Source: a virus. From it: a DNA stretch of 64,000 nt. Shown one piece after another: positions 1 to 37,314 of the stretch (position 1 is its first letter; each line of letters begins with the position of its first letter). Under the pieces are notes generated by a model. It saw only the letters and a program-made list of their open reading frames with translations, did not search any database and had not been told where the DNA came from. The stretch lies in the IMG/VR virus record IMGVR_UViG_3300025133_009393. One strand, given 5' to 3'. The position numbers and the translations under genes were made by a program.

Positions 1-168
1 GATAACCTCCATACAAGTCGATCCGAACCAATCACTAACAACTTCGTCAATAAAATAAACATGATAGGGAAACATCGAATTGATAAGAGTCTCTTGGTTG
101 GGTTCATACCCAATAATCATACCTAAAGAACCGTCACCCGTGTGACGAACCAAATCACCGACTTTCAC
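1..168 (-). CDS. MKVGDLV-family microprotein (KOW/SH3-like), runs off the window edge
   Basis: Manual translation from GTG at 168: MKVGDLVRHTGDGSLGMIIGYEP...WFGSTCMEVI; 14-nt overlap with the upstream stop. Confidence 0.8.
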   Translation of the reverse strand, partial: MKVGDLVRHTGDGSLGMIIGYEPNQETLINSMFPYHVYFIDEVVSDWFGSTCMEVI

Positions 169-340
169 TGATAACCTCGTAATCATTGGCATTTCTCCAG
201 CCGCGCACGTCCGACGTCGTAAACCATAGTTTCGACCCATCACCTCTCAGCGAACGGTCGGATACAACAACAACCAACTTTAGCAGCAAGGTCGACTTGT
301 GCTTGGCGTTCTTGTGTATAACCAAATCACCGACTTTCAT
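155..340 (-). CDS. MKVGDLV-family microprotein
   Basis: MKVGDLVIHK...YEVISESR; start moved to the ATG at 340 inside the junction motif. Confidence 0.8.
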   Translation of the reverse strand: MKVGDLVIHKNAKHKSTLLLKLVVVVSDRSLRGDGSKLWFTTSDVRGWRNANDYEVISESR

Positions 341-494
341 TGAGTATTTCCAACTGAGACTCCGGCCATTGTATTCGTTCGTCGCCACAAATAATTGTAT
401 ACCAACCGCGCCAAGCCTCCGACGAAGAAACTATTAAGCCGAGCCTCTCGCCAGAAAACGAACCAATCAGCTTAACAACATCACCGACTTTCAT
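327..494 (-). CDS. MKVGDLV-family microprotein (55 aa, not in ORF track)
   Basis: Manual translation MKVGDVVKLIGSFSGERLGLIV...QLEILNESR. Confidence 0.8.
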   Translation of the reverse strand: MKVGDVVKLIGSFSGERLGLIVSSSEAWRGWYTIICGDERIQWPESQLEILNESR

Positions 495-663
495 TTAGAG
501 GCTCCAAAAGCTCATGGTCAATAGGATAAAATCCGCTGTGCTGGGGGTTGCCGAACCAATGAATAATAGCATCGTCCCTAAGCCTGTCTTCTGGCATCTT
601 TAGGATAATACCAATATCTTTCGCGTGTGGGTGTGTCCACTTAACCAAGTCGCCTACTTTCAT
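481..663 (-). CDS. MKVGDLV-family microprotein
   Basis: MKVGDLVKW...GIIL...IHW...LNESR. Confidence 0.8.
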   Translation of the reverse strand: MKVGDLVKWTHPHAKDIGIILKMPEDRLRDDAIIHWFGNPQHSGFYPIDHELLEPLNESR

Positions 664-890
664 GCCTTAACCATAGGTACGGATTGTGAGGAGTAAAGAA
701 CTTCGATGTGTCTTCCGTTAACGTCTCGTCGATACGGGTCTGCGTTCGGACAGCTATTCCACTGAACATAATAGAATGGTCGGTAGTCCTTATCAAGTTG
801 CCCTCGATCGACTGCGACCAGAAGACCAACATCGCCCTCGTCAAAGGTATAAGTGTCTTCCGTTGCGATTACAATATCACCTGCTTTCAT
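660..890 (-). CDS. MKVGDLV-family microprotein
   Basis: MKAGDIV...GLLV...YYVQW. Confidence 0.75.
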   Translation of the reverse strand: MKAGDIVIATEDTYTFDEGDVGLLVAVDRGQLDKDYRPFYYVQWNSCPNADPYRRDVNGRHIEVLYSSQSVPMVKA

Positions 891-1065
891 CTAAAATCTC
901 CAACCAGTCAGCCCTCATCCAAGCGGGCTCGTATTCGTCAAACCAATGTATTTTGTAAGGGCAAGCGTTAGGGTTTGCCAACTGCGGCTTGCTTATCTCT
1001 ATTATAATCCCCATTCCGGCTGGGTAAAGGGCATGAATGTTTTTTACCAAGTCACCGACTTTCAC
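877..1065 (-). CDS. MKVGDLV-family microprotein
   Basis: MKVGDLVK...GIII...YKIHW...LEILDESR. Confidence 0.8.
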   Translation of the reverse strand: MKVGDLVKNIHALYPAGMGIIIEISKPQLANPNACPYKIHWFDEYEPAWMRADWLEILDESR

Positions 1066-1246
1066 TTACAACCTCGATAAATCTCTCAGCCATTGGCCCT
1101 CCATAGTGGAAGTTCGCAGATGGAAGCGGGTGCAAGTCCCAATAGGCTACTCGTCCAACATAATCGTCTTCCATATCTGCTCTCCCAATGATAATATAGT
1201 AACCAATCTTCGCTGGTAAAACTTGAACTAAGTCACCGACTTTCAA
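1052..1246 (-). CDS. MKVGDLV-family microprotein (TTG start)
   Basis: MKVGDLVQV...IEVVSESR; GAGGAG upstream. Confidence 0.8.
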   Translation of the reverse strand: MKVGDLVQVLPAKIGYYIIIGRADMEDDYVGRVAYWDLHPLPSANFHYGGPMAERFIEVVSESR

Positions 1247-1421
1247 AGTAACTCCTCAATACCAACTCAAGTTGGTTATGTACCAGAACCTCAATGATTT
1301 TAGCTTCTTCTTCATCTATGTCCAGCCTGAATGGCAAATCCACCTTAGCAGTTATACCGTCTTCGCTGACTCCGATATGAAACCATGCGCCACTTGTTAA
1401 GCATTTCGTTGAGTTAGCCAC
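1233..1421 (-). CDS. hypothetical protein, non-family body with ESR junction tail
   Basis: 62-aa ORF that overlaps both neighbours. Confidence 0.6.
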   Translation of the reverse strand: MANSTKCLTSGAWFHIGVSEDGITAKVDLPFRLDIDEEEAKIIEVLVHNQLELVLRSYFESR

Positions 1422-1713
1422 TAACTTCTTCTAGTACGATTTTGTCTTTGAAACCGCCGCGTTGCAGCTTTTTGGCCGATGCGCGGTTGGCGACTGTCTC
1501 GATATTCATATCGTGCAGAGTACATATTGATAAGAAAACTTCATATATATCAGCAGCTTCCTCTTCACACGGCGTCTCGATGAACTCGGCTATTTCTTCG
1601 CATAGCTTTTCATACAGACGAGTCTTGTATTCATCGTCTTTGGCTATGTGGATCACACACTCTCTGCCGCTTTCTCTAATGATTTCAGGGATTTTGTCTC
1701 TAACTAGCTTCAT
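1414..1713 (-). CDS. MazG-like/PRA-PH nucleotide pyrophosphohydrolase
   Basis: KLVRDKIPEII, EEIAEF...EEAADIYEV and RGGF motifs. Confidence 0.85.
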   Translation of the reverse strand: MKLVRDKIPEIIRESGRECVIHIAKDDEYKTRLYEKLCEEIAEFIETPCEEEAADIYEVFLSICTLHDMNIETVANRASAKKLQRGGFKDKIVLEEVSG

Positions 1714-1900
1714 TGACTACCTCCAAAATGGATAGCTGATAGTTGCCAGGCGCCGTGTATTTGCAAGCCCATTCGATGTAGGCAGCACCGCGTTCTGGCT
1801 GTGACGGATGCGGTGATTCGGGCAAGTCGACTATTCTTAATACAATGCCATGAGGGCTACTCATGTGGTTCCTAAACCTTACTAGGTCACCGATTTTCAT
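1700..1900 (-). CDS. MKVGDLV-family microprotein
   Basis: MKIGDLVRF...GIVL...IEW...LEVVNEAS. Confidence 0.8.
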   Translation of the reverse strand: MKIGDLVRFRNHMSSPHGIVLRIVDLPESPHPSQPERGAAYIEWACKYTAPGNYQLSILEVVNEAS

Positions 1901-2060
1901 AGTGATATTCCACATCGTCAGATTCTATTCCGTCGATTTCCCCATCAGACCACAAACATTCGAGCCAAAAGTTATTTGGCGAGATTCCGTTATATACTTC
2001 CGAAACATCTAAAATGATAGCAAACTCGCCACCACACTTTATCAGGTCACCTGTCTTCAT
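1887..2060 (-). CDS. MKVGDLV-family microprotein (57 aa, not in ORF track)
   Basis: Manual translation MKTGDLIKCGGEFAIIL...CLWSDGE...YENR. Confidence 0.75.
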   Translation of the reverse strand: MKTGDLIKCGGEFAIILDVSEVYNGISPNNFWLECLWSDGEIDGIESDDVEYHYENR

Positions 2061-2255
2061 TTACAATCCCGGGTCTTCAATCGAGCTAACGAGCCTGATC
2101 TCTGAGTATTTGACATTGCGTGTTGCTCCGTCTTTCAAACCTAGCAGCTTGTACGTTCTTTCGCTAAAGCCGCGACTATCTCTTGGTAGTTGCTCTAAAA
2201 CGATGTAATAACGCTTACTTTCATATAGAACGGTAACTAGATCACCTATCCTCAC
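2061..2255 (-). CDS. MKVGDLV-family microprotein
   Basis: MRIGDLVTV... Confidence 0.75.
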   Translation of the reverse strand: MRIGDLVTVLYESKRYYIVLEQLPRDSRGFSERTYKLLGLKDGATRNVKYSEIRLVSSIEDPGL

Positions 2256-2476
2256 GCCCTACTCATTATCCAAAACATATTTCTGGCGCTGCTAAAATCC
2301 TTTGAACTCCACGGGTCAGTAAGTGTCCTGCCGCTACTCCATGCCACTTCTACCATGCATGAGTCATCCGAGATATCGCTATAACGATGATAGGTCGACA
2401 CTACGACACCAACATCACCGTCAGAACATCCAACAATATCACCTACTTTTGGTTCGTTAAGGTCGCAAGGGGGCAT
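2252..2476 (-). CDS. KVGD-family microprotein
   Basis: [15 protein letters not shown]...GVVV...VEVAW; start moved to limit overlap with the GIY-YIG gene. Confidence 0.65.
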
Positions 2477-2717
2477 TGATAGTTTCCTCTTTTTGTTTTC
2501 TAGTGAGGGACTTAAACTTTCTCTCGGCGCGAAGGGCCTCTCCATGTAGAGAGAATCCTTCAACATAGATGAGCTGAACGGGTCTTCTGGCGCGAGTGTA
2601 TTTAGCGCCTCTCTTCGTTTTGTTATGCTCATGCAGTCGTCGTTTTGTATCTGTCGTTATACCTGTATAGTAAGTACCGTCTGCACAAAGTAAAACATAA
2701 AGATACCATTCTTTCAT
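2457..2717 (-). CDS. stand-alone GIY-YIG nuclease (UPF0213/YhbQ-like)
   Basis: [29 protein letters not shown] and A..AE..FK motifs. Confidence 0.9.
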
Positions 2718-2911
2718 CTTGGCGCGTCACTCACCAATAGCAGTTCATCTTCTTTCCACCATTCCGGCGCTTCTTCCCAATGAACCTCGTAATATACTAT
2801 CCCATATTCATCTTCGTAGGTGTCAAGTATCACACCATATTTATAACCCTCTATATTGAGGATCGATTTATAAACCGAAGAGCAAGGCTTTACTATGTCT
2901 CCTACTTTCAT
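2714..2911 (-). CDS. MKVGDLV-family microprotein
   Basis: MKVGDIVK...GVIL...YEVHW...LLLVS. Confidence 0.8.
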
Positions 2912-2921
2912 TACTGATGAA

Positions 2922-2949
2922 AATATAGACACAACTTAGGCATGGTTAA
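2922..2949 (-). promoter_or_regulatory. sigma70-like promoter
   Basis: TTAACC-N16-TATATT ahead of the first microgene run. Confidence 0.5.
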
Positions 2950-3130
2950 GTATTTTAATACCGCCGCCCTTTGTCACGGCAGCAGTTTCTATCCCGTCCT
3001 CTGAAACTACTTGGCAAGGCGTCAAAAAGAATATCCTAGCAGTCTCAGCGCACTCTTCGATTGTGTTACAAGTTATCTTGCGTACATCTGACATGTCTGT
3101 GTCTGGCGTCACAATATATGTTTTCGTCAC
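2936..3130 (-). CDS. hypothetical protein
   Basis: ORF with AGGAG RBS. Confidence 0.6.
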   Translation of the reverse strand: MTKTYIVTPDTDMSDVRKITCNTIEECAETARIFFLTPCQVVSEDGIETAAVTKGGGIKILNHA

Positions 3131-3139
3131 TCTGAACTC

Positions 3140-3424
3140 CTATTCTGCATGGCTAACGAGCATTATTTCCCAATTTTCACGTACTTGGACGCGCGGCGTG
3201 GGAGACGGGTCGACCCATTTTTTGCGCGGAACAGTGTGCGCGGGGCCGAGCCAATGAACTGTCACGTCATAGCGCTCTTTCTTTTTTTGACACAAGAGCT
3301 TGGCTGTGTGCTCCTCTCGAATATGCTGTTTTGAAAGCACAATGCCCTGAACCTTAGAGTTGGGATGCCAAGCCTCGCGGACGATTGATCCCGGCTTCAG
3401 CTTTCTAGCGTCCTTCATATTCAT
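3140..3424 (-). CDS. hypothetical protein, possibly KOW/SH3-like
   Basis: KLKPGSIV...GIVL...YDVTVHW pattern resembles the microprotein family. Confidence 0.6.
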   Translation of the reverse strand: MNMKDARKLKPGSIVREAWHPNSKVQGIVLSKQHIREEHTAKLLCQKKKERYDVTVHWLGPAHTVPRKKWVDPSPTPRVQVRENWEIMLVSHAE

Positions 3425-3717
3425 CGTGCAATCCACCGTTCCTTCGATTGTGAATAATCATCTTCTGTGCGGCGTCGTTTTTCTGCGTTCGCGCTCATTT
3501 GGCTAGTCGTTAGTGGCTCTTTATCCGCCTCGTAGATAGCTTTTTCGGCCTGATATACTGCCTCGGACAACTGCTTTCGCTTGTTATTATTAAATGCGAC
3601 TTCTACCCTCTCCAGATTTTCAGGCCCAGTTGGGTCTGACATACTGAGGACGCGAGAAGAAACCTCTAAAAATGCCTCGACTGTCTCGCGAGGAAGCGTA
3701 ATTGTTTCATCCATCAA
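3421..3717 (-). CDS. hypothetical protein
   Basis: 98-aa ORF, GGAGG RBS. Confidence 0.6.
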   Translation of the reverse strand: MMDETITLPRETVEAFLEVSSRVLSMSDPTGPENLERVEVAFNNNKRKQLSEAVYQAEKAIYEADKEPLTTSQMSANAEKRRRTEDDYSQSKERWIAR

Positions 3718-3728
3718 AACCTCCGTGA

Positions 3729-3756
3729 AAGAACAGTAGGAACAAAGTCCTGCTAG
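3729..3756 (-). terminator. probable intrinsic terminator
   Basis: TAGCAGGA-loop-TCCTACTG followed by TTCTTT. Confidence 0.4.
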
Positions 3757-3764
3757 TAAAGCGA

Positions 3765-4547
3765 TTATTCATCGTAAACGGTACCATGGTAATCATACGG
3801 TCGACTATCATCAAACTCTCCGCTTTCTTTCGCGGCTCGAAGGGCCGACTCGATCGTTAAAAAGTCTTCGGGGGGATTCGACTCTACTGGCGAAACAATC
3901 TCGAAACATCGCCTTTCGAAACGAACAGATACTTCACGATTGTTAATGTTTGAAACACTTGACGGTAACAGAGTACCATACGTTCTTCCGGCAGGGTAAT
4001 GCTCAGTCGATTCAAAAGAGCGAGTGCGTACGATATCGTTGTAATGATTGGGGCTTTCAACAGCCACATTGTGGGTAAACGAACCCCAAAAAATACTCTC
4101 TACCATTGTAAGAACCTTAGAATCACCCCAAGGATCTGTTCGATACCCCAAAGCGCCGAGACCAAAGCCAACTTCCGTCATATTTTCGACGAACTTCTCG
4201 CGGGCCATAACGCACTTGACCGCATACTTATTCATATCGCCCTTACGAAAACTACAGGTTCTACGAGTGTGACCCTCATCTTTGCAGTAAGAGCACTTGC
4301 GATTCTTGCCGCGATTTGCAGTCTTATTAAGTTCGGCCTTGTGACGCTCAAGATTTCGCTTGGCGTAGTTACGCTCCCAATCGTCGGTGAAGTTATCTTC
4401 TGCGAGTTGCTGCTCATATCCAGCAATCTGATCTAAATGACTCTGCTTCTTTATTTTGCAGGAACTCTTGTTGTGACCAGTCTCGTAGCAGTGTCCACAT
4501 CGAACAGAGCGCTTGTAGTTTCCATTCTCATCCATATGATACGACAT
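3765..4547 (-). CDS. protein with two CCHC zinc knuckles
   Basis: CGHCYETGHNKSSC and CSYCKDEGHTRRTC (CX2CX4HX4C twice). Confidence 0.75.
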   Translation of the reverse strand: MSYHMDENGNYKRSVRCGHCYETGHNKSSCKIKKQSHLDQIAGYEQQLAEDNFTDDWERNYAKRNLERHKAELNKTANRGKNRKCSYCKDEGHTRRTCSFRKGDMNKYAVKCVMAREKFVENMTEVGFGLGALGYRTDPWGDSKVLTMVESIFWGSFTHNVAVESPNHYNDIVRTRSFESTEHYPAGRTYGTLLPSSVSNINNREVSVRFERRCFEIVSPVESNPPEDFLTIESALRAAKESGEFDDSRPYDYHGTVYDE

Positions 4548-4578
4548 TTTGATTCTCCGTTGTGTCGTTTACGTTATA

Positions 4579-4606
4579 ACTATAGTTACGCATCTTGAAT
4601 AGACAA
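4579..4606 (-). promoter_or_regulatory. sigma70-like promoter
   Basis: TTGTCT-N16-TATAGT. Confidence 0.55.
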
Positions 4607-5059
4607 GAGCGCATCCAACATATTTACAGCTTTTGCTTTACGTCCATCGTTTCCGACTGGATATACCCAACACCTAGACCCGTACGGGGAGTATATACTT
4701 GTTCCATCTTCAGAAAGAGCCCCTAAAACTTGAGTCATTTCCACGTCTTCGAGGATATAATCATCCTCATCTTCACCTTGCCGGTAAGCAACGCCAGCTT
4801 CTATCAACAGAATCATCATGTATTCGGTCAACTGTACGCCTTCGATTGGCGAGTCCATATGACACACTTCTGCGAAGTATTCATGACAACTGTTATCCTC
4901 GATGCGCGCAGACAACTCTACATAGCCGCTATCAAGCTCTTCGAAGGCATAACCAACGCCATTAGTATACCAGTCCAGAAAACTATCGGTAAAACATTCG
5001 ACTACTTTGGTATAGATATCCTTTCCGTATTTAGGTTTGAAAATCCAAGATTCCATCAT
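4586..5059 (-). CDS. hypothetical acidic protein
   Basis: 157-aa ORF with GAGG RBS. Confidence 0.65.
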   Translation of the reverse strand: MMESWIFKPKYGKDIYTKVVECFTDSFLDWYTNGVGYAFEELDSGYVELSARIEDNSCHEYFAEVCHMDSPIEGVQLTEYMMILLIEAGVAYRQGEDEDDYILEDVEMTQVLGALSEDGTSIYSPYGSRCWVYPVGNDGRKAKAVNMLDALLSIQDA

Positions 5060-5090
5060 TTTTCCTCGCTGTGGGATTTGATTTCTATAG

Positions 5091-5164
5091 TGGACCCTCT
5101 CGGACTTGAACCGAGGACTTCCCCGTTATGAGCGGGGGGCTCTAACCAACTGAGCTAAAGGTCC
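5091..5164 (-). tRNA. tRNA-CAT, most likely Ile2 (lysidine type); no encoded CCA
   Basis: Cloverleaf GGACCTTTAGCTCAGTTGGTTAGAGC...CTCATAA...GGTTCAAGTCC...GGGTCCA; acceptor stem resembles bacterial tRNA-Ile2. Confidence 0.85.
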
Positions 5165-5169
5165 GTGTG

Positions 5170-5246
5170 TGGTTGGCCCAACGGGACTTGAACCCGTGAC
5201 ACCCACTTTATAAGAATGGCGCTCTAACCTACTGAGCTATGGGCCA
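5170..5246 (-). tRNA. tRNA-Ile(TAT)
   Basis: Cloverleaf with anticodon arm CCATT-CTTATAA-AGTGG, T-loop TTCAAGT and an ACCA end. Confidence 0.9.
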
Positions 5247-5265
5247 GCAATCTGCTTACGTCTCA

Positions 5266-5293
5266 ACCATAGGAACGGTTTCTTCATAGTCAA
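5266..5293 (-). promoter_or_regulatory. sigma70-like promoter for the tRNA-Ile pair
   Basis: TTGACT-N16-TATGGT. Confidence 0.55.
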
Positions 5294-5472
5294 GCCTCAG
5301 AAACAAGAATAAGCGTTTCTTCTCGTCTAGGGAGATCTTCACCCTCCAGCACATATAAAGTAGTGGCCTTTCCGGCTCTCTCACTTTGGACAACCTTAAC
5401 AATCATCTTTGGAGGAAATATTTCCCTGTAATTCGAATAACTTGAAGGTATCACTAGATCACCCAGCTTCAT
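5290..5472 (-). CDS. MKVGDLV-family microprotein
   Basis: MKLGDLVI...LILVSEA. Confidence 0.75.
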   Translation of the reverse strand: MKLGDLVIPSSYSNYREIFPPKMIVKVVQSERAGKATTLYVLEGEDLPRREETLILVSEA

Positions 5473-5551
5473 TCAAGATCTCTAGCCAATCGTCGAGCAT
5501 ACATTCCTTCTCGCCGTCATGGTGGTCTTGAACCAGATCACCGACCTTCAC
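5459..5551 (-). CDS. internally shortened MKVGDLV-family cassette (30 aa)
   Basis: MKVGDLVQDHHDGEKECMLDDWLEILNEAG; both junctions intact. Confidence 0.6.
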   Translation of the reverse strand: MKVGDLVQDHHDGEKECMLDDWLEILNEAG

Positions 5552-5729
5552 TGACGACCTCTAAATCATTGATATTAAATGTGTGTTCAGCATCGAAAAC
5601 TGCCTTAACAAAAATAAAGTCGACCGCATCAGCCGGATATATATGTGTGACTACGCCTATCGTGTCTTCGTATGGTCGACCCTTACGAGTCTTTCGCATA
5701 GATAGCCTCACCAAATCACCGACTTTCAT
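5538..5729 (-). CDS. MKVGDLV-family microprotein
   Basis: MKVGDLVRL...LEVVSEGR; start moved to 5729. Confidence 0.8.
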   Translation of the reverse strand: MKVGDLVRLSMRKTRKGRPYEDTIGVVTHIYPADAVDFIFVKAVFDAEHTFNINDLEVVSEGR

Positions 5730-5904
5730 TGTTACACTTTCCCAGTCGACGCATACGGCATCCACACCGATTGTCAATCCACCGTTCGATTGTATTCCCA
5801 ATGACTTCCATTACAGCCCTGAAGTCCTCTTCGTCATCCAGGGAACGAGCATCGCACTTCTGTGCGAGCATGTGTTCGATTTCTTTTACAAGTTCATGCT
5901 TCAC
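5716..5904 (-). CDS. hypothetical helical protein with ESR junction tail
   Basis: MKHELVKEIE...CNNESR from a GTG that overlaps the upstream stop. Confidence 0.55.
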   Translation of the reverse strand: MKHELVKEIEHMLAQKCDARSLDDEEDFRAVMEVIGNTIERWIDNRCGCRMRRLGKCNNESR

Positions 5905-6079
5905 TGAGCAACTCCAGTTCATGTGTTCCGTGAAAAGAAAAATCATCGATCCACTGTATTCTGTGAGAAACAAATCCCTCTTCGGGGTAGTCAGTTATAG
6001 ATGTAATAACGCCATGGCCATAGTAAACACCTTTTATCTGGTATTCCTCTTTGAGCAGGACGATATCACCGACTTTCAC
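5894..6079 (-). CDS. MKVGDLV-family microprotein
   Basis: MKVGDIVL...GVI...IQW...LELLSEA. Confidence 0.8.
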   Translation of the reverse strand: MKVGDIVLLKEEYQIKGVYYGHGVITSITDYPEEGFVSHRIQWIDDFSFHGTHELELLSEA

Positions 6080-6260
6080 TGATTTTTTCCACGCATGTTA
6101 AGGGCGTCCAAGATTCTTGAGGACCATACTCGTCATTAAACCAAAATATCCAAGCACCATCGTTGGTACTCATACTTTCCAATCTAAGCACAATTCCTAT
6201 ATGGCCGACAAGATAGCAGCGCTTTGGATCAGACCATCTCGCTAGGTCGCCAACTTTCAT
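6066..6260 (-). CDS. MKVGDLV-family microprotein
   Basis: MKVGDLARW...GIVL...IFW...VEKISESR. Confidence 0.8.
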   Translation of the reverse strand: MKVGDLARWSDPKRCYLVGHIGIVLRLESMSTNDGAWIFWFNDEYGPQESWTPLTCVEKISESR

Positions 6261-6266
6261 AATTGG

Positions 6267-6294
6267 AATATAAGCACGCAAAATAAAAAGTTAA
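6267..6294 (-). promoter_or_regulatory. sigma70-like promoter, probably giving a leaderless transcript
   Basis: TTAACT-N16-TATATT, 6 nt before the ATG at 6260. Confidence 0.55.
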
Positions 6295-6464
6295 GCATTT
6301 TTTAACGATTCGGAAGCCTCGACAACCAGTTGTCTTATCTTATCAATCCTATCGTTTAGCTTTTCTTCGCTTTCAGTCTTTATTGCGGTCTTCAGAAGAT
6401 AAAGCTGTTTGAGCGACTCTTCTAGTTTCTTTTCGTTTGGATTTGGAACATAAATCCTGGGCAC
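6291..6464 (-). CDS. small coiled-coil protein (57 aa)
   Basis: Manual translation MPRIYVPNPNEKKLEESLKQL...; GGAG RBS. Confidence 0.55.
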   Translation of the reverse strand: MPRIYVPNPNEKKLEESLKQLYLLKTAIKTESEEKLNDRIDKIRQLVVEASESLKNA

Positions 6465-6685
6465 TATTTATCTCTCCTTGTCTTTTGCTTTGTTAACAAT
6501 GTCATATTGTTTTCTTGCAAAAGTAAATTCTCAGACAGCATGCTCCGAAGTTCTTTTGAAAGACGTTCCAGTAAACTCATGGCATCGATGTCTAAAACGA
6601 AAACATTCTTGCTCTTCATTCGAGTAATTTTATGCCTTGCTTCGTTTATCAGTTGAAGTCGTTCGTGAAATTTTTGATTTTTCAT
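6464..6685 (-). CDS. hypothetical coiled-coil protein
   Basis: 73-aa ORF with GGAG RBS. Confidence 0.55.
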   Translation of the reverse strand: MKNQKFHERLQLINEARHKITRMKSKNVFVLDIDAMSLLERLSKELRSMLSENLLLQENNMTLLTKQKTRRDK

Positions 6686-6704
6686 CGCGCGAACTCCCGG
6701 GTGT

Positions 6705-7694
6705 TCAAATTCGGTGTTTTGAGTCTGAAAAATAAATCTCTACATTGGATAATTCTTTCTTTATATACTCTGTCATCTCGTCTTCGGTATCGAACGAGAC
6801 CACTTCTTCACCACTAAATAGTTTCCAAGTATCCAATTCTCTCAATACATCAACTTTATTTAGAATTAACTTGTTTACTGAGTTTATGTTAATGGCCCTT
6901 TTCAAGCTAGCTAGGTTGAGATAGTTACACTGCCGGGCGCGGCCAGTGGTTGCTCCGTATTCTTCACCAGCCTCACGTACGCGAGCAAAAAATTCTTGGT
7001 CGTCAGCTGGCTCAAAGGTCTTCGCTCCGACGTAAGTCTCGTAAACTTTTCCAACACCCCAAACGTCTCGGATCCAAGTATGCGGAATACCGTTCAACAA
7101 GGCGCCTGCAACACCACAGTGACTCGAAGTCACAAACGGATAATCGCCCCAATCTATATCAAGCCCAAAACCCTGAGCGCCTTCGCACAATACATTGATA
7201 TTTTGATCGCTGTAAAATTCCTCATACATATCAATTATATAGTCTTTTAGAGCGGGTACATCCTCTGCCTGAACTCCTAGTCGTGCGTATTTATCGCGAT
7301 ATGCAGGCCCGTTGCCGCGTTTAGTTGTGCCAATTTTTGATTCGCTCTCTTCTTCAAAAATATGTGCGTTAGTAATGACGTGAGTGTTTTTAGCGATAAA
7401 AATCTTTCCTTCGACATCCACACCCCCATCTTTGAGTTCTTGTAATTCGTTAAAAAATTGTTCTGCGTTAACCACACAGCCTGGGCCGATAATGGATTTA
7501 ATCCCATAAAAAACGCCAGCAGGAATATGGTGAGTTACAAATTTCTTACCTTCATGATAGATGGTATGTCCAGCATTGCAACCTCCGTTGAATCTTAAAA
7601 CATGCGTGTAATCCTTGTATTTACATAAATAATGGGTAACTTTACCCTTTGCCTCGTCCCCATGTTGTACACCTATCACTATATCAGCATGCAT
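6705..7694 (-). CDS. purA: adenylosuccinate synthetase (short form)
   Basis: GDEAKGK, GGCNAGHT, EGAQG, YPFVTSS, GATTGR and NKVD motifs. Confidence 0.93.
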   Translation of the reverse strand: MHADIVIGVQHGDEAKGKVTHYLCKYKDYTHVLRFNGGCNAGHTIYHEGKKFVTHHIPAGVFYGIKSIIGPGCVVNAEQFFNELQELKDGGVDVEGKIFIAKNTHVITNAHIFEEESESKIGTTKRGNGPAYRDKYARLGVQAEDVPALKDYIIDMYEEFYSDQNINVLCEGAQGFGLDIDWGDYPFVTSSHCGVAGALLNGIPHTWIRDVWGVGKVYETYVGAKTFEPADDQEFFARVREAGEEYGATTGRARQCNYLNLASLKRAININSVNKLILNKVDVLRELDTWKLFSGEEVVSFDTEDEMTEYIKKELSNVEIYFSDSKHRI

Positions 7695-7774
7695 ATTTTC
7701 TCCTTATAATAAACCCCATTCCCACACCCCAAATCGGGATCCCGCCCACCAAGGGGCCACCACGCATTACACAT

Positions 7775-7802
7775 ATTATATCAACTATAAGAGAAAAGTA
7801 AA
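7775..7802 (-). promoter_or_regulatory. sigma70-like promoter of purA
   Basis: TTTACT-N16-TATAAT. Confidence 0.6.
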
Positions 7803-7803
7803 A

Positions 7804-8064
7804 TTATTTCTTACCTTGGTAAAATATTCCCACAGTATGCTTAGCACTCAACACTTTAAGTCTCTTTTCTAAATTTTTTACCATCTCAAACTCAACCGGC
7901 ACTTCAGATTCGGGAAGCTCATAAATAAAAACTGTTCCTAAATCTCCACATAAGTGATGAAACTCATATTGCGCGCCATTGTCGACAAAAGCAGTCACTG
8001 ACTCTTCTTCAACAATTTTCTTAATCGCCTCTAGTTCTTCTTTCTTTGACATAGTTCCTATCAT
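7804..8064 (-). CDS. hypothetical protein
   Basis: 86-aa ORF. Confidence 0.55.
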   Translation of the reverse strand: MIGTMSKKEELEAIKKIVEEESVTAFVDNGAQYEFHHLCGDLGTVFIYELPESEVPVEFEMVKNLEKRLKVLSAKHTVGIFYQGKK

Positions 8065-8067
8065 ATT

Positions 8068-8143
8068 TGGTACCCCCTGTAGGATTCGAACCTACGACCT
8101 AGCGGTTAAGAGCCGCGTGCTCTACCAACTGAGCTAAGAGGGC
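8068..8143 (-). tRNA. tRNA-Lys(CTT)
   Basis: Cloverleaf, anticodon loop CTCTTAA, CCA end. Confidence 0.92.
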
Positions 8144-8149
8144 AAAAAA

Positions 8150-8359
8150 TTAATATACTCTCACCATTATATGTCGACAAACGCGTACCTTTCTTATAAC
8201 AGTGCCTCGTCGACGAACATATCTCCAATGACACTTAATTCTGGGTTCCATTCTGTACATTCGCTGTGAAGAAATTCTGCTACCGGGGTGGCGTACGTAA
8301 CATGACGCCTGCAAGTTAGCAAAAAATAATAACACTAATAAAAATATAATCTTTTTCAT
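8150..8359 (-). CDS. small Arg-rich protein with signal peptide
   Basis: MKKIIFLLVLLFF hydrophobic N-terminus and basic body. Confidence 0.55.
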   Translation of the reverse strand: MKKIIFLLVLLFFANLQASCYVRHPGSRISSQRMYRMEPRIKCHWRYVRRRGTVIRKVRVCRHIMVRVY

Positions 8360-8366
8360 AATAATC

Positions 8367-8443
8367 TGGTAGCGCAGACGAGATTCGAACTCGCACTCAC
8401 ACGGCTTGAAAGGCCGGTATTTTAACCGTTAAACTACTGCGCC
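8367..8443 (-). tRNA. tRNA-Glu(TTC)
   Basis: Cloverleaf, anticodon loop CTTTCAA, CCA end; 5' end overlaps the stop of the upstream ORF. Confidence 0.85.
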
Positions 8444-8658
8444 TCGTCGCTTAAAACTGCTACTAACTCTTCCTCATTCCAAAACCTAGCCTCCAAATCA
8501 TCTGGAAATAGAACCTCATAACGCTTCTGCTTGCGCCCTCGATGATCATCATCCAAGTGCCAGTCAATTTCTCCAACCACCAGTCCGATTATTGCATTTC
8601 TGCTGAAACCGGAGGGGGAGCGAGAGCGAATGACCAAATCACCAATTTTTAATGCCAT
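8434..8658 (-). CDS. KIGDLV-family microprotein
   Basis: MALKIGDLV...IGLVV...YEVLF...W.EEEL. Confidence 0.7.
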
Positions 8659-8703
8659 GTTTCCATATTATAATAACTAAACATTGCCTTGTAAGGTTTT
8701 TAT

Positions 8704-8780
8704 TGGTGCGCCCGACAGGATTCGAACCTGTGACCCTCGGCTTAGAAGGCCGATGCTCTATCCAGCTGAGCTACGGGCGC
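8704..8780 (-). tRNA. tRNA-Arg(TCT)
   Basis: GCGCCCGTAGCTCAGCTGGATAGAGC...CTTCTAA...ACCA. Confidence 0.95.
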
Positions 8781-9609: not shown

Positions 9610-10047
9610 TTATCTCTCCTTTGCTTGGCGATCGAACATTGTAATACCATCCAGATGATCTATCTCATGTTGCACGCAAACGCACTCCAGAGCATTTTCC
9701 TTGGTACTAAAATATATTATATTCGGATGATTGTCTGCCTTGACAGCAATATCCGCATATCGTTCAGTAATAATATAATCCCCAGGAAACGAAAGACAAC
9801 CTTCTTTGAAATTTATTTTACCAAACTTACCAGCTATTTTTGGATTAACTAAAATAATCGGTTTGACAACTTTAACGACACAAACACGTCTATCGATGCC
9901 CACTTGGTTGGCCGCCAAGCCGACACCTGTTTTGTGAGAATCTAAGATCCCTAAAAGAGTCTTTCCTAGCGCTTCACCTTGTTGTACATCAGAAATTTCT
10001 ACACAAGGCTTCGCCAGGCGGTCTTTTTCGGTAATAATATTATACAT
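9610..10047 (-). CDS. def: peptide deformylase
   Basis: GVGLAANQ, EGCLS and QHEIDHLDG motifs. Confidence 0.95.
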   Translation of the reverse strand: MYNIITEKDRLAKPCVEISDVQQGEALGKTLLGILDSHKTGVGLAANQVGIDRRVCVVKVVKPIILVNPKIAGKFGKINFKEGCLSFPGDYIITERYADIAVKADNHPNIIYFSTKENALECVCVQHEIDHLDGITMFDRQAKER

Positions 10048-10058
10048 CTTACCAGTAA

Positions 10059-10688
10059 TTAGGTTTGAGCAAGGGCTCTGGAGTCAATAAAGAGGCGAGA
10101 GGCATAAAAACTTATAAACGCCAAAACGATTCCTGAAAATACATCCACCAAATAGTGCTGTTTCAAAGTTAAAGTTGATAGTGCTATACCCAAAGCCCAC
10201 AGCAAATACAAAGCTTTTAGCCCCTCGACCTTGCGCGCTAATTCTGTTTTGCAAGCACCCAAAAACATTATCCAAGCGAAGGTTACATGACCAGATGGAA
10301 AAGTGTTATTAGATGCATCAATTTGTCTTGTTAAATATAACATAGCTTCAGAGATTGTGTTGACTTCAAACTCTAAGCGTGGATAAAAACTTGGAAAACA
10401 TAAATAAGATACATTCAAAACTGCAGTTGCTACGATGCAAGCCCAGAAGGTCGTAAGAAAAACCCCTCGACTTTGTACGAGAGACAGCATTGTCAACAGT
10501 ATTACTGGCAGTATGCTATGATATATCCATATATGTTGGGGCATGAAAGGAATGGCGTTATCAAATTCAGTTATAAAATCAAATTCGTGAGTTGTCACGA
10601 AAGCCTGGATTAATCCATATAATCCGAGATACGCAACCAACATCAATGAGATATATTTTACTTTATCACACTTCGGCACTGATGACAC
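10059..10688 (-). CDS. PAP2/AUR1-like membrane lipid phosphatase or phosphotransferase
   Basis: Several TM segments; NTFPSGH and QHYLVD motifs. Confidence 0.85.
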   Translation of the reverse strand: MSSVPKCDKVKYISLMLVAYLGLYGLIQAFVTTHEFDFITEFDNAIPFMPQHIWIYHSILPVILLTMLSLVQSRGVFLTTFWACIVATAVLNVSYLCFPSFYPRLEFEVNTISEAMLYLTRQIDASNNTFPSGHVTFAWIMFLGACKTELARKVEGLKALYLLWALGIALSTLTLKQHYLVDVFSGIVLAFISFYASRLFIDSRALAQT

Positions 10689-11389: not shown

Positions 11390-11629
11390 TTATAATTCGT
11401 AGATATCTTTACTGCTCACATACCAAGTCTCGCCTAAATAATGCACACCAACATGGTCATCTTGAACCTCAGTTACTAGCAAGCTAACGGGCTTTTTCGT
11501 TGTATGGTGCCTCTCTGGTACAGAATAGGCTCGATGGCTGGCTCTGGCCTCGCCCAGCATGCCAAATTTTAATAAACGTACACTTGAAGGTATATATATA
11601 AGCTGCCCTATCTGTATGCTTCTACTCAT
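11390..11629 (-). CDS. small SH3-like hypothetical protein
   Basis: MSRSIQIGQLIYIP...W.V; start overlaps the groEL stop. Confidence 0.55.
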   Translation of the reverse strand: MSRSIQIGQLIYIPSSVRLLKFGMLGEARASHRAYSVPERHHTTKKPVSLLVTEVQDDHVGVHYLGETWYVSSKDIYEL

Positions 11630-13190
11630 TTTCAACAATCGCATAACCAGTCGTGATAATTGTTGAAGCCACAGACACTGCATTAAGCAACGCAATGCGT
11701 GTAACTTTAACTGGATCGATTATGCCCATCTTTAACATAGGAACCAACTCGCCAGAGTTAAAATCCCACCCCTCGTCGGCCTTTGAGTTTCTGACCAGAC
11801 TGGTTATCATATCAGGACTCTCCCCGGCATTTAAAGCCATTTGTCTTAATGGCCCGGCAAGAGACTTGCGTACAATCTCGACGCCCAAGCGTTGATCTTC
11901 GCCATCAACCTCAACATCAAAATCCATACACCTTACAAGACTTGAGCCGCCGCCAGGAACAATTCCGCCTTCGCGAGCAGATTTGACAGCCTCTAGGGCA
12001 TCTTCGATCCTGTGCTTCTTCTCTATCATTTCAACCTCTGTTGGCGCGCCGACTCTGATTATAGCAACGCCGCTAGCAAGTCTAGATATCCTTTCTTGAA
12101 CCCTCTCGCACTCGTGAACATCATCCGTTTGTTTGATTTCCGCCTTGAGAGATTCAATTCGCTCATCAACTTTTTCCCAATCGCAACCATCGCTTATAAG
12201 AGTTGTGAAATTCTTAAGCACCTCTATCTTTTTACAGCGGCCCAAGTGTTCTAGCTTAGTCTCTTTTATATTAATACCCGAAGCTCTGCTTACAAATGTC
12301 GCACCGACAGATAAACAAAGATCCTCTAAGATATTATTCCTCTCCTGACCATAGCGTGGCGCCTTCACTGCTGCGATCTTCATGGTGCCGCGCACAGTAT
12401 TCATAATCAAAGCAGCCAAAGCTTGACCTTCGACCTCTTCAGCAACTATAATCAGCGGGCGGCCTTCTCGTGAAACAACTTCCAAGACGGGCAGAATATC
12501 TTCCACCAGTTCAATCTTGTGATTAGTCACCAGTACCATGGCATCATCATATTCGACCGCTGCTTTTCTCTCATCAGTAACAAAGGCAGAGGCAAAGTAT
12601 CCAGAATCAAACCTAAAGCCTTCGGTAATATCAACAGTTGTCTCCATTGATCTGCCGTTCTGAATCGTTATTGAACCATCCTTTCCTGCTTGATCAACTG
12701 CCATGGCAATCATCTTTCCAATAGCAGTGTCTCCATTCGCGGAGATGGTGGCTACATGTTCTATGTCGTCTGTGGAAGATAGAGGATGCGCCATGTCCTT
12801 GAGTCTATCCATAATCACTTCAACTGATTTGTCCATCCCGCGTTTAAGTTCGACTGGCGATGCTCCTGCGGCTAGGTATTTCTGAGCGTTATTTAGAATT
12901 GATCTGGCTAGAACAGTGGAAGTAGTTGTTCCATCACCCGCCTTCAAATTTGTTTGGGACGCGGCCTGTTTTATAATCTGCGCGCCAGCATTCTCGAAAG
13001 GATCGTCAAGCTCAATAAACTCAGCAACCGTGACGCCATCCTTCGTGATGATTGGTCGACCACCTTTCTTATGCAATATTACATTTCGACCTTTCGGGCC
13101 GAGGGTAGAAGCTACATTGTCTGCCAGCTTGTTTACCCCATCAATTATACGAACTTGCAAATCTTTGCCGTTCTGATAGTTCTTAGACAT
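11622..13190 (-). CDS. groEL: chaperonin GroEL
   Basis: TLGPKGRNV, TKDGVTVA, GDGTTT and GIVPGGG motifs; no GGM tail. Confidence 0.97.
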   Translation of the reverse strand: MSKNYQNGKDLQVRIIDGVNKLADNVASTLGPKGRNVILHKKGGRPIITKDGVTVAEFIELDDPFENAGAQIIKQAASQTNLKAGDGTTTSTVLARSILNNAQKYLAAGASPVELKRGMDKSVEVIMDRLKDMAHPLSSTDDIEHVATISANGDTAIGKMIAMAVDQAGKDGSITIQNGRSMETTVDITEGFRFDSGYFASAFVTDERKAAVEYDDAMVLVTNHKIELVEDILPVLEVVSREGRPLIIVAEEVEGQALAALIMNTVRGTMKIAAVKAPRYGQERNNILEDLCLSVGATFVSRASGINIKETKLEHLGRCKKIEVLKNFTTLISDGCDWEKVDERIESLKAEIKQTDDVHECERVQERISRLASGVAIIRVGAPTEVEMIEKKHRIEDALEAVKSAREGGIVPGGGSSLVRCMDFDVEVDGEDQRLGVEIVRKSLAGPLRQMALNAGESPDMITSLVRNSKADEGWDFNSGELVPMLKMGIIDPVKVTRIALLNAVSVASTIITTGYAIVENE

Positions 13191-17576: not shown

Positions 17577-17914
17577 AGTTCCGGGTGCTCCTCTGCAATC
17601 AGATCAAATACATTTTCAATATCGTTTTTATCCAAAGCAAATATCTTTTTGGTCTCCGCTCCCTTCTTTATGAGTCTTTCGGAAGCCTGTCTTTTGTTTA
17701 TTCCCTGTATATTGTTATCACCCCTATAGCGGCTTAAGTAGGAAACTATATCTGGATCGTTTTCCAAATATCCAGTTATCATAGCGCGAAAGAAGTGAGA
17801 CTGATTCAGGCCGTCGTGTCGCAAACGTATTCTCAAATCAGCCTGTCTCTTTTCTGTATCGTAAAACATGAATTTTTTTCGTGTTTTAGGATCTGGTATC
17901 GTCGGATCTTTCAA
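17573..17914 (-). CDS. hypothetical protein, possibly ribbon-helix-helix
   Basis: KKFMFY...LRIRL..DGLNQSHFFRAMITGYL. Confidence 0.55.
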   Translation of the reverse strand: MKDPTIPDPKTRKKFMFYDTEKRQADLRIRLRHDGLNQSHFFRAMITGYLENDPDIVSYLSRYRGDNNIQGINKRQASERLIKKGAETKKIFALDKNDIENVFDLIAEEHPEL

Positions 17915-18936
17915 CTATACCTCCGGAGAATATGAGTGTTGCTTTCTAGTTGGCTTGAATTTGTCTGTCGTAAGAAATCTGCTTTACATCGAAGTTCTGA
18001 CAAGTTGTGTACACCTGAATAAGAAAGGCCGCTGCGAATGCCGCCACTAATATTTTGAAGGATATGCTCAACACCTCCTTTATACGGAACGGTAGTCGAT
18101 ATCCCCTCCGGAGTTGATGACTTTCCTCTCCAATCGATTTGCGCGGCAGAGGAGGCCATACCTCTGTATACTTTATACTTTTTCCCTGAGTTACTGGAAA
18201 AGGTTTCACCGGGAGTCTCCTTAGTTCCCGCCAGCATCGACCCTATCATGACAAAGTCTGCGCCGGCAGCATAGGCTTTAACCATATCTCCTGTGGTTTT
18301 TATACCGCCATCTGCTATTATCTTCGAACTATAAGTAGTCTGTGATATCTCCAAAAGACTCTGAAAGGTTGGAATTCCATGTCCCGTAACCAAACGTGTT
18401 GAGCATATAGAGCCGCCTCCAATTCCGACTCGAATTGAGTCCGCTCCCCAGGAGGCCAGAGCGTCAAAACCCTTAAGTGTCGCGACGTTTCCGGCCATCA
18501 GATGGATTGACTCTCCGAACCTATCTTTGAGAGTTTTTAAGCACCTTTCCATCACCGAATGATGGCCGTGAGCGACGTCGACGCAAAGTACTTGTGCTCC
18601 GACGGCCCTAAGAGCCATGGCGCGGATCTCGTAATCATCCGTCATACCGATCGCAGCACCAACAGTAGCTTTCGTATCTTTTGCTAAAACTAACGCAACA
18701 TGTTTAACCTGCTCTTCGATACTATTATAACGATGAACCAAGCCTAGGCCGCCGGCGTGGTGCATAGCTAGCGCCATATCACTTTCGGTGATAGTATCCA
18801 TTGGGCTTGAAACAACCGGCAAATTAAAATGAAGATGCTCGCCTAGATCACTTCCAATATCAACCTGCCTTCTACTTTCTATGTCACTGTATTGTGGTAC
18901 CAGCAACACATCATCATATGATAATCCCTTCTTCAC
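17911..18936 (-). CDS. guaB: IMP dehydrogenase/GMP reductase (no CBS domains)
   Basis: LSYDDVLLVP, SPMDT, GIGGGSICSTR, IIADGG and YRGMAS motifs. Confidence 0.9.
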   Translation of the reverse strand: MKKGLSYDDVLLVPQYSDIESRRQVDIGSDLGEHLHFNLPVVSSPMDTITESDMALAMHHAGGLGLVHRYNSIEEQVKHVALVLAKDTKATVGAAIGMTDDYEIRAMALRAVGAQVLCVDVAHGHHSVMERCLKTLKDRFGESIHLMAGNVATLKGFDALASWGADSIRVGIGGGSICSTRLVTGHGIPTFQSLLEISQTTYSSKIIADGGIKTTGDMVKAYAAGADFVMIGSMLAGTKETPGETFSSNSGKKYKVYRGMASSAAQIDWRGKSSTPEGISTTVPYKGGVEHILQNISGGIRSGLSYSGVHNLSELRCKADFLRQTNSSQLESNTHILRRYS

Positions 18937-36198: not shown

Positions 36199-37314
36199 CT
36201 ATTTTTCTTCTTTATCGATATCATAATAAGCTTTGGCATCTCCAGATCTATTCTCAAACTTTAAAATAATATCCTCGTCCATGATCTCCAATACCCTAGT
36301 CTTAAATTTCTCGTTCTTGAGCTTTTCTAACCATTTGCTGGCTTGGAATTTTTCTGTGCTTCCATCCTTATACACCAAATTATACCAAGCTCCTGATTGG
36401 TTCAATGATTCTGATCCTTTGATAGCTTCTAGCCAGCTTTCTTGATCTTGAATTCCAACGTCACCGCCCCACAAGATCTTAAAAGTACACTGACGGCCTT
36501 CGGTGCCGAAGCGACTCTTCTTCAACGTTGCTTTGACCTCGCAGCCAACTCGATATCCATTCTCGTCGGTAATGAAAGAGGCCTTTGCCTTGCGTTTCGT
36601 AAGCCATATACGCAGCGAGTAAGCATAATGCATTGCTTTTCCGCCAGGTGTAACATAGGGTGTGGTCATTGCTTCCGCAACGTTGCTAGTAATGTTTGTC
36701 TTTAGCTGATTCAATACCAAAAACGTTGATTTTGATGCAGCAATAGGCACTGTTAGCTTTGCCATACCCTTCGCCAGAATTCTAGGCTTAACTGCCATCG
36801 ATGATTGCGGGTTAAAGTCGCCTTCGACGTCGCTGACCGATGGTGTTAAAGCTAGAGAGTCCCATATAAAAAGCATACGATTGTCGTTTGAACCCAGTAG
36901 CTCTTCAATCGTCTCTAAAACATACTCCACACTAGGCGGCTGTAAATAAAGAATATTATTAACATCGCAGCCGGCGCTAGCTAGAAATTGAGGATCTATT
37001 GCTGATTCAGAATCAAAATATACAACATCAATTCCCATTTTTTGAGCATTCGCGGCGATTTGTGCAGCCATGTAAGACTTGCCTGAACCTTCCAAGCCAG
37101 CGATCTCTACTACCTTGCCCATGGGAATTCCCGCCAGCTGGCCCCTGCAAGTGATGCAGTCTAGCCAACGAGATCCGGTCGGGATCCAGTCTTTAACTTG
37201 TGTTGGATTATCCTTGGTCAAATCAAAGGCAACTTCCATTCCCGCCTTCTTGTTAATGAGATTTCTCATCTCTCCAATACTTAGCCTTCCCAGCTTCTTT
37301 GTCTTCTTAGCCAT
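36199..37314 (-). CDS. recA: RecA/UvsX-like recombinase
   Basis: GLEGSGKS, IWDSL, LNQL, TPGGKAM and GAWY motifs. Confidence 0.93.
   Translation of the reverse strand: MAKKTKKLGRLSIGEMRNLINKKAGMEVAFDLTKDNPTQVKDWIPTGSRWLDCITCRGQLAGIPMGKVVEIAGLEGSGKSYMAAQIAANAQKMGIDVVYFDSESAIDPQFLASAGCDVNNILYLQPPSVEYVLETIEELLGSNDNRMLFIWDSLALTPSVSDVEGDFNPQSSMAVKPRILAKGMAKLTVPIAASKSTFLVLNQLKTNITSNVAEAMTTPYVTPGGKAMHYAYSLRIWLTKRKAKASFITDENGYRVGCEVKATLKKSRFGTEGRQCTFKILWGGDVGIQDQESWLEAIKGSESLNQSGAWYNLVYKDGSTEKFQASKWLEKLKNEKFKTRVLEIMDEDIILKFENRSGDAKAYYDIDKEEK

Follow-up and report, generated by a model that had tools for sequence, protein, structure and literature searches.

Small genes are shuffled as modules in T4-type phages, where promoter-early stem-loop (PeSL) elements delimit the exchanged cassettes (Arbiol et al. 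2010, PMC2839356; Comeau et al. 2014, PMC4122927). A PeSL is an intergenic element that combines a sigma70-like promoter with a stem-loop terminator, and each cassette forms its own transcription unit. The 3' end of the element includes a Shine-Dalgarno sequence and a start codon, and mini-circles have been shown for PeSLs; the shuffling is known from coliphage and vibriophage relatives of T4 (PMC2839356, PMC4122927). The present work deals with an array of small genes at the beginning of IMG/VR virus record IMGVR_UViG_3300025133_009393, a stretch of 64,000 nucleotides (nt) that is referred to below as the window. In positions 1-6260 of the window, short genes follow one another through a repeated junction that is itself part of two overlapping coding sequences.

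The reading that we favor, with a probability of roughly 0.65, is that this array is a translationally coupled chain in which the coding junction serves as a hotspot of homologous recombination. SH3-like paralogs of about 60 amino acids (aa), members of a large and old family, together with a few unrelated cargo genes, are chained by a coding junction of about 32 nt. Within it, the Leu-Glu-Val codons of the last β-strand supply GGAGGT, the start codon (A/G/TTG) follows 5 nt on, and the upstream TGA lies inside Gly4-Asp5 (GGT GAy) of the downstream gene. The chain is most likely read as a polycistronic mRNA, with coupling by termination and reinitiation. Because the junction is the only sequence common to paralogs that are otherwise saturated, it would be the point at which crossovers occur, by homologous or microhomology recombination, both within a genome and between the genomes of co-infecting phages. 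Such crossovers could insert, delete, duplicate, replace, or reorder whole genes while preserving the frame, the ribosome-binding site, and the stop codon. Dual coding, constraints from translation initiation, and homogenization via the crossovers probably all help to hold the nucleotides of the junction, and the recombination pathway may be the phage's own machinery.

The junction and its conservation

Seventeen microgenes of one family (30-76 aa), all on the minus strand, lie in positions 1-6260 and one outlying member is found farther on (Table 1); they start with MK[VIAL]GD[LIV]V. A six-frame motif scan combined with a listing of open reading frames (ORFs) recorded 17 sites of the form [MVL]-K-x-G-D-[LIV]-x, on the minus strand only and none of them outside 1-8652. 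With R (MRIGDLV) added and Q (internal PKVGD) counted, the family comes to 17 members in 1-6260, namely A-N plus P, Q, and R, and the outlying member at 8434-8658. The exact 13-mer TGAAAGTCGGTGA occurs seven times on the minus strand, at 155, 327, 481, 1052, 1233, 5716, and 6066, and never in 100 shuffled controls; variant junctions are present at 877, 1887, 5459, and 5538. At 11 boundaries with a family member downstream the two genes overlap by 14 nt, and the shared letters give, in different frames, ...E-S-R-TGA as the end of the upstream gene and A/G/TTG-AAA-GTC-GGT-GA as the beginning of the downstream one. The boundary between G and the 99-aa gene also has a 14-nt overlap, with TAG as the stop codon, and the remaining boundaries have overlaps of 11, 8, 4, or 0 nt. 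The original prediction, made from the letters of the window, had reported the 13-mer with its count and places, the variant sites, and the ESR tail as a reading of the other frame, and all of these hold.

In a logo drawn from 198 overlapped junctions of the window and of related loci, the consensus is tTGGAGGT.ATCA followed by GTGAAAGTCGGTGATTTGGT, which extends from -12 to +20. Gene tails read ...LE[VI]x[SN]ESR, and the Shine-Dalgarno sequence GGAGGT, at -12..-6 of the logo, is encoded by Leu-Glu-Val codons, in agreement with the earlier proposal that the Glu-Val codons often supply the ribosome-binding site. A single stretch of about 32 nt contains the Shine-Dalgarno sequence, the start codon, the upstream stop codon, and the first β-strand. 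This is the arrangement expected of a translationally coupled chain, as the upstream stop overlaps or adjoins the downstream start and the Shine-Dalgarno sequence lies within the upstream ORF. No promoter-like or terminator-like signals were found at the junctions, and the consensus in the logo is a direct, non-palindromic coding sequence.

This conservation could also have another origin. The genes might be ordinary tandem-duplicated paralogs, the junction being kept by the N-terminus (MKVGDLV), by the last β-strand (LEVI), and by initiation (AAA and the Shine-Dalgarno sequence), with generic illegitimate or microhomology-mediated rearrangement from which broken genes and broken coupling are purged. 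We consider this explanation unlikely, although some positions of the junction behave as it predicts. AAA as codon 2 is enriched equally in overlapped genes (83%) and non-overlapped ones (79%), which suggests an initiation effect, and GGT at Gly4 is forced by the upstream TGA.

The wobble position of Val3, in contrast, is not accounted for by this explanation. In gene bodies AAA is used at 0.50, GTC at 0.17 of Val, GGT at 0.27, and CGG, the rarest Arg codon, at 8% of Arg; this usage predicts the exact 13-mer in about 2% of MKVGD genes, and it was observed in 7 of the 12 KVGD members. Val3 is encoded by GTC in 79% of the 198 overlapped genes compared with 17% in gene bodies, and its wobble position is C in 24 of the 25 junctions of pattern-independent loci (contigs L120-L125, p 7e-18). 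The ratio of GTC to GTA at Val3 is 127:17, with an expected GTC share of 36%, although GTA would also give Arg in the other frame (AGG, where GTC gives CGG); Val7 has no GTC bias. Since this C runs against codon usage and is needed by neither frame, amino-acid constraint and codon bias do not fully explain the identity of the junction. Synonymous positions in the junction, which the original prediction had proposed to examine, are in this respect conserved beyond dual coding.

Start codons differ as well between the two classes of genes, with GTG in 53% of overlapped and 12% of non-overlapped genes, and GTG or TTG in 55% and 15%, respectively. The synonymous junction positions -5, +9, and +18 vary by genome (p 2e-4 to 8e-3), which hints at homogenization within genomes; as these differences are confounded by genome codon bias, they are not used as evidence here.

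Gene order and breakpoints among relatives

Relatives were compared at the species level (L036, L120, and L121) and at the strain level (L122-L135, fetched via exact protein matches). In the species-level relatives, orthologs of the window genes are recognizable (40-90% aa identity) and their order is scrambled, with at most 3 of the 19 window adjacencies kept in any one relative; the flanking blocks, namely the PurA block and the block of the 157-aa and 260-aa genes, are collinear. The order B-X-C of the window, for instance, is C-B-X in L121 at about 90% nt identity, the blocks overlapping in the junction only, and in the comparisons with L120 and L121 almost every block end falls in the boundary motif. 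For this one genome pair, window and L121, the synonymous divergence (dS) is 0 for B, 0.15 for L, 0.33 for C, 1.4 for K, and 1.3 for J, which indicates gene-by-gene mosaicism.

At the strain level, L126 represents the window's own strain (99.96% identity over 10.7 kb). It is 100% identical to L128 for 2,040 nt and unrelated to it immediately past the N junction, and L134 matches the window at 99.6% over 6,873 nt as far as the F/G junction, which is precisely where the two diverge. L129 shares 99.8% identity with L128 beginning at the start codon of I; upstream of I it carries a 77%-identical allele of the 99-aa gene, fused directly via a ...LEEVIESR-stop/TTG junction. In L122, member M is a 98%-identical island and member J a 94% island, with about seven genes between them compared with two in the window; the M island is seen in L122-L125, with junctions at both edges and unrelated neighbors. 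A second copy of B (B') in L126 has 96.6% nt identity to window positions 6078-5990, and the similarity starts at the junction.

Among the distinct internal ends of blocks with at least 93% identity, 8 of 11 lie at -3 to +37 nt from a family start, and family start windows of that size account for about 18% of the array length and for about 6% of all DNA in the comparison. The enrichment of breakpoints at family starts is large, yet partly built in. Gene order and the position of breakpoints had been set in advance as checks on the proposal that junction-to-junction recombination moves whole genes in frame; with an order that is not identical among relatives and breakpoints that fall mostly in the junction, this proposal is well supported by the comparative data.

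The explanation by tandem-duplicated paralogs can accommodate some of these results, because gene bodies are under purifying selection and because a deletion between 15-nt direct repeats and other events off the junction do exist. It is less compatible with strains that are identical over 2-7 kb and turn unrelated exactly in the junction, with single genes that form 98%-identical islands, and with neighboring genes whose dS ranges from 0 to more than 1.3. Taken together, the Val3 wobble, the switches between strains, the islands, and the spread of dS require exchange with endpoints at the junction. As these endpoints lie between non-homologous gene bodies, they are most simply produced by homology-dependent crossover. 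The phage encodes a RecA/UvsX-like recombinase and thus has homologous-recombination machinery of its own.

The mosaics might also be artefacts, if metagenome assemblies were chimeric at the repeated junction. The strain-level contigs are indeed short metagenome assemblies, and the junction is repeated; however, the exact shared stretch measures only about 20-32 nt, far under the final assembly k (k141 in contig names). Moreover, each variant context turns up repeatedly, in samples and assemblers that are independent of one another (L122/L123/L124, and L127-L130 from JGI and ENA), and differences in order are also found between long IMG/VR contigs of 69-293 kb. Chimeric assembly is therefore scarcely credible as the source of the mosaics.

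Another explanation, which we find quite improbable, is that a dedicated enzyme, perhaps the 86-aa GIY-YIG protein, recognizes or cleaves the junction, where its double-strand breaks would stimulate homing-like or site-specific exchange of cassettes. The gene for this protein lies within the array in three cases (the window, L036, and L120) and at a distance of 4 kb in a 293-kb genome, and nucleotide-level conservation of the junction in excess of coding needs would suit a cleavage site. Yet the protein is a bare catalytic domain without a DNA-binding module, and its co-occurrence with the array is inconsistent, as it was not found in a 159-kb genome (88% complete) with 18 junctions. In addition, the junction lacks palindromy, and the crossovers reach +37 nt into the shared N-terminal codons, as expected for homology and unlike a fixed site.

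Several points weigh against the coupled chain with homologous recombination at its junction. Pairing probabilities revealed no conserved RNA structure at the junction, and, as the members share descent, their codon counts do not represent independent events. Endpoints within shared sequence are beyond the resolution of BLAST, and the junction is the sole homology between paralogs; selection for intact genes would likewise leave whole-gene units. Three of the 11 strain-level ends are off the junction, at a tRNA edge, at a gene boundary just past the stop codon, and at a 171-nt indel, which means that these phages also recombine outside the junction. Finally, the proposed mechanism rests on the comparison of relatives, and both transcription and translational coupling are deduced from sequence only.

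The 171-nt indel (L127:7370-7541 versus L128:7022-7036) is located in a non-family gene, between 15-nt direct repeats (AGAAATCGACG.C), and is a microhomology-mediated deletion elsewhere in these phages. The break at the tRNA edge (window 8704-8780, L133:1-981) concerns L133, which is 99.8% identical to the window downstream of tRNA-Arg; upstream of the break L133 has different genes, including one for a protein with a PagL (lipid A deacylase) domain.

The protein family and the phages that carry it

Searches of Pfam and PHROG returned no match for 10 window members (Pfam KOW none at E≤1). With regard to the KOW motif PF00467, only 2 of 136 members match, both with scores below the Pfam gathering threshold (best E 0.0031), and a family profile finds uL24 and NusG faintly among PDB sequences (E 0.03-0.1). 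The AlphaFold2 model of gene I, built on the 136-sequence family alignment, has a predicted local distance difference test (pLDDT) score of 87 and five strands (6-9, 18-24, 37-41, 48-50, and 55-59). Structural alignment of the model with VIA-align gave PsaE (Z 9.4), Spt5 KOW (Z 8.8, root-mean-square deviation 1.6 over 56 residues), Tudor (7.8), and NdhS (7.5), and further alignments were obtained with R67 DHFR and SPbeta YorP. Foldseek returned nothing at E≤0.001, and its weak top rows are all SH3-like. The model thus supports the assignment of the family to the SH3-like barrels, as an unclassified member. The likeness to KOW/SH3 domains in the original prediction is in this way borne out for the fold, as modeled and aligned on gene I, the one member for which the proposed structure prediction and Foldseek search were run, and not for membership in Pfam KOW. 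Confidence in the model is low at the E-S-R tail, consistent with the tail being a by-product of the overlap.

Ortholog pairs have ratios of nonsynonymous to synonymous divergence (dN/dS) of 0.1-0.37 across gene bodies; the genes are thus under purifying selection and encode real proteins. The family is large: a profile search of 1.84 billion representatives yielded 6,693 clusters (50% identity) at E≤0.001, mostly of 50-75 aa with the match beginning at residue 1, and with a few in-frame multi-domain forms. None of the 254 matches from a homolog search in a set of 5.8 billion proteins has a functional name or a Pfam domain, and a protein atlas places the family among unnamed viral clusters only, the nearest named ones being SH3-like (DsrB, R67 DHFR) and serving as leads only. 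Some distant relatives (P0121, P0124, and P0122) have in-frame tandem domain repeats, MKFKVGDKV...LELV(K)EE, in 3-5 copies per protein, and P0122 is a two-domain fusion with the junction turned in-frame (...LEVVKQVKVGDLV...). The most plausible guess is that the proteins would be small binders engaged in an arms race, with host factors as their targets.

Positions 1-6260 are part of a single hyperplastic region, which extends beyond the start of the window, in the genome of a large uncultured marine T4-like myovirus. The phage encodes a Gp23-type capsid protein, tail sheath, DnaE, DnaB, class II ribonucleotide reductase, GroEL, RecA/UvsX, a 5'-3' exonuclease, and an IMPDH-family enzyme, with PurA at 6705-7694. 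By capsid protein, the closest isolates are Microcystis phage Mel-JY01 and Flavobacterium phage immuto (36-45% identity). Among GenBank phages no match was found by megablast of 1-8000, tblastn of member K, or blastn of the junction, and no cultured representative of the family or of the junction was found there. Auxiliary metabolic genes are numerous (window positions 9610-10688, 11622-13190, 17911-18936, and 26032-26892); besides PurA they comprise peptide deformylase and PAP2 phosphatase (from the gene table of L126), GroEL, an enzyme of the IMPDH/GMP-reductase family, and a pyridoxal-phosphate (PLP)-dependent enzyme.

In IMG/VR, a scan with ATGAAAGTCGGTGA found the motif in at least 119 contigs. 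Among the matches listed, at least 34 loci have five or more members, with up to 24 members in 15 kb and the same tails and overlaps. The contigs that carry arrays fall into the same clade, their capsid protein identities being 79%, 61%, and 50%. In the complete 293-kb genome, a degenerate junction pattern occurs 26 times in the forward and 0 times in the reverse direction, clustered at 16-32 kb, and in the 159-kb genome it occurs 18 times forward and 0 times reverse. The feature is thus real and widespread in an uncultured clade of marine phages. As the same arrays and junction are found in phages with divergent capsid proteins, the architecture is old, and it is kept in one hyperplastic region per genome.

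The individual genes are collected in Table 1. The non-family genes within the chain are X, Y62, the 99-aa gene, and the GIY-YIG nuclease gene; X starts with MKHELV in the window and its ortholog in L036 with MKPGD, so that family-like first codons stand on an unrelated body. For the 99-aa gene the name MazG-like was considered and dropped, as Pfam and PDB sequence searches gave no match. The 5' half of the remnant D matches the 5' end of a full-length gene in L036. Past window position 1, the same strain continues after N with a member of 58 aa and with B', the second B copy (L126:10665-10917); L128 and L130 have, past N, members of 61, 68, and 66 aa, a 216-aa gene, an AAA_5 ATPase gene, and a DUF2201 (VWA-like) gene instead. 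Five tRNA genes (Met-CAT, Ile-TAT, Lys-CTT, Glu-TTC, and Arg-TCT) lie among the arrays at 5086-5246 and 8068-8780, and the CAT/TAT pair is separated by 5 nt. The 260-aa protein has knuckle-like CxxC...H...C repeats with a weak zf-C2H2_10 match only, and its gene is syntenic with the 157-aa gene and kept in all relatives, forming a stable core between two variable chains.

Table 1. Coordinates of the array genes and of other features in the window
Feature	Position	Strand	Description
Member A	6066..6260	-	64 aa; MKVGDLA..., tail SESR; 14-nt overlap with B; orthologs in L036 and L120
Member B	5894..6079	-	61 aa; GTG start; body nearly identical in L121 (dN 0.009, dS 0)
Cargo X	5716..5904	-	62 aa; non-family body, starts MKHELV, tail NNESR
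Member C	5538..5729	-	63 aa
Member D	5459..5551	-	30-aa remnant, both junctions kept
Member E	5290..5472	-	60 aa; closes the upstream chain, then tRNA-Ile and tRNA-Met
260-aa protein	3765-4547		Knuckle-like repeats
Member P	2714..2911	-	65 aa
GIY-YIG nuclease domain gene	2457..2717	-	86 aa; within the array; PF01541, E 3e-18
Member Q	2252..2476	-	74 aa; 8-residue leader, then family domain
Member R	2061..2255	-	64 aa; MRIGDLV
Member F	1887..2060	-	57 aa
Member G	1700..1900	-	66 aa
99-aa gene	1414..1713	-	Non-family cargo; without Pfam or PDB sequence match
Cargo Y62	1233..1421	-	62 aa; non-family, tail FESR
Member H	1052..1246	-	64 aa; TTG start
Junction H/I	1043..1075	-	Example of about 32 nt, fits the consensus tTGGAGGT.ATCA then GTGAAAGTCGGTGATTTGGT
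Member I	877..1065	-	62 aa; protein used for the structure model
Member J	660..890	-	76 aa; tail extended by loss of the junction stop; overlaps K by 4 nt (ATGA)
Member K	481..663	-	60 aa
Member L	327..494	-	55 aa
Member M	155..340	-	61 aa
Member N	1..168	-	Truncated by the window start; 66 aa in L126/L128
Outlying member	8434..8658	-	74 aa; among tRNA genes
RecA/UvsX-like recombinase	36199..37314	-	PF00154, E 1e-35

Relation to known systems

Literature searches (MKVGDLV and hyperplastic regions) found no description of the family or of the junction. The array is a new form of a known type of phage genome plasticity, built on an unannotated family of SH3-like microproteins. Its boundary motif codes in two frames, and a single repeated element would thereby combine recombination with translation signals and protein sequence. 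The family of about 6,700 clusters is without Pfam or PHROG annotation, and its strain-level turnover in ocean phage populations marks it as a likely arms-race interface.

A more far-reaching reading, offered tentatively and with considerable doubt, is that the dual-coded junction of 32 nt is a selected module that unites ribosome-binding site, stop codon, start codon, and recombination handle. If this is true, the module would constitute an integrase-free cassette system of a clade of large marine phages that continually exchanges, duplicates, and captures genes, with cargo X and the 99-aa gene among the captured ones. Captured cargo would then acquire the junction or family-like first codons, and the phages would thereby possess a rapidly renewed library of SH3-like binders directed against host factors or defence systems.

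Among described systems, PeSL modular shuffling is the closest, sharing both the logic and the genomic niche, and the junction may be viewed as its coding analogue. In both cases copies of a short conserved motif separate small non-essential genes within the hyperplastic regions of T4-like phages, the endpoints of indels, replacements, and reorderings between close relatives fall in the motif (here in 8 of 11 strain-level ends), no integrase is involved, and the motif also carries expression signals. Unlike a PeSL, the junction codes in two frames, leaves no intergenic DNA, the boundaries being 14-nt overlaps, and has no promoter or stem-loop signal. The genes also appear to be chained for coupled translation, and they are mostly paralogs of one fold, whereas PeSL cassettes carry unrelated ORFans.

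Integron cassettes offer a second parallel, as they too are small, promoterless genes on the same strand, with a content and order that differ among close relatives. In ten non-family proteins of the 1-6 kb region no integrase or recombinase domain was found, the other ORFs of the window not all having been scanned, and the junction is unlike attC in being a direct, non-palindromic coding repeat without structure signal. Exchange in the array, unlike that in integrons, would presumably proceed by general homologous recombination.

The proteins themselves resemble the KOW/SH3 barrels of NusG, Spt5, uL24, PsaE, NdhS, and Tudor, with which they share the five-stranded barrel and a common K-x-G-D-x-V first strand; they differ from KOW proteins in that they are free-standing, at 55-75 aa, rather than domains of transcription or ribosomal proteins. 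With the translationally coupled genes of bacteria and phages, the chain shares stop codons that adjoin or pass the downstream start, Shine-Dalgarno sequences within the upstream gene, and tolerance of weak starts. Such genes usually overlap by 1 or 4 nt, whereas the overlap described here is 14 nt long and fixed in sequence, recurs dozens of times within a genome, and is kept between phages with 50% capsid identity.

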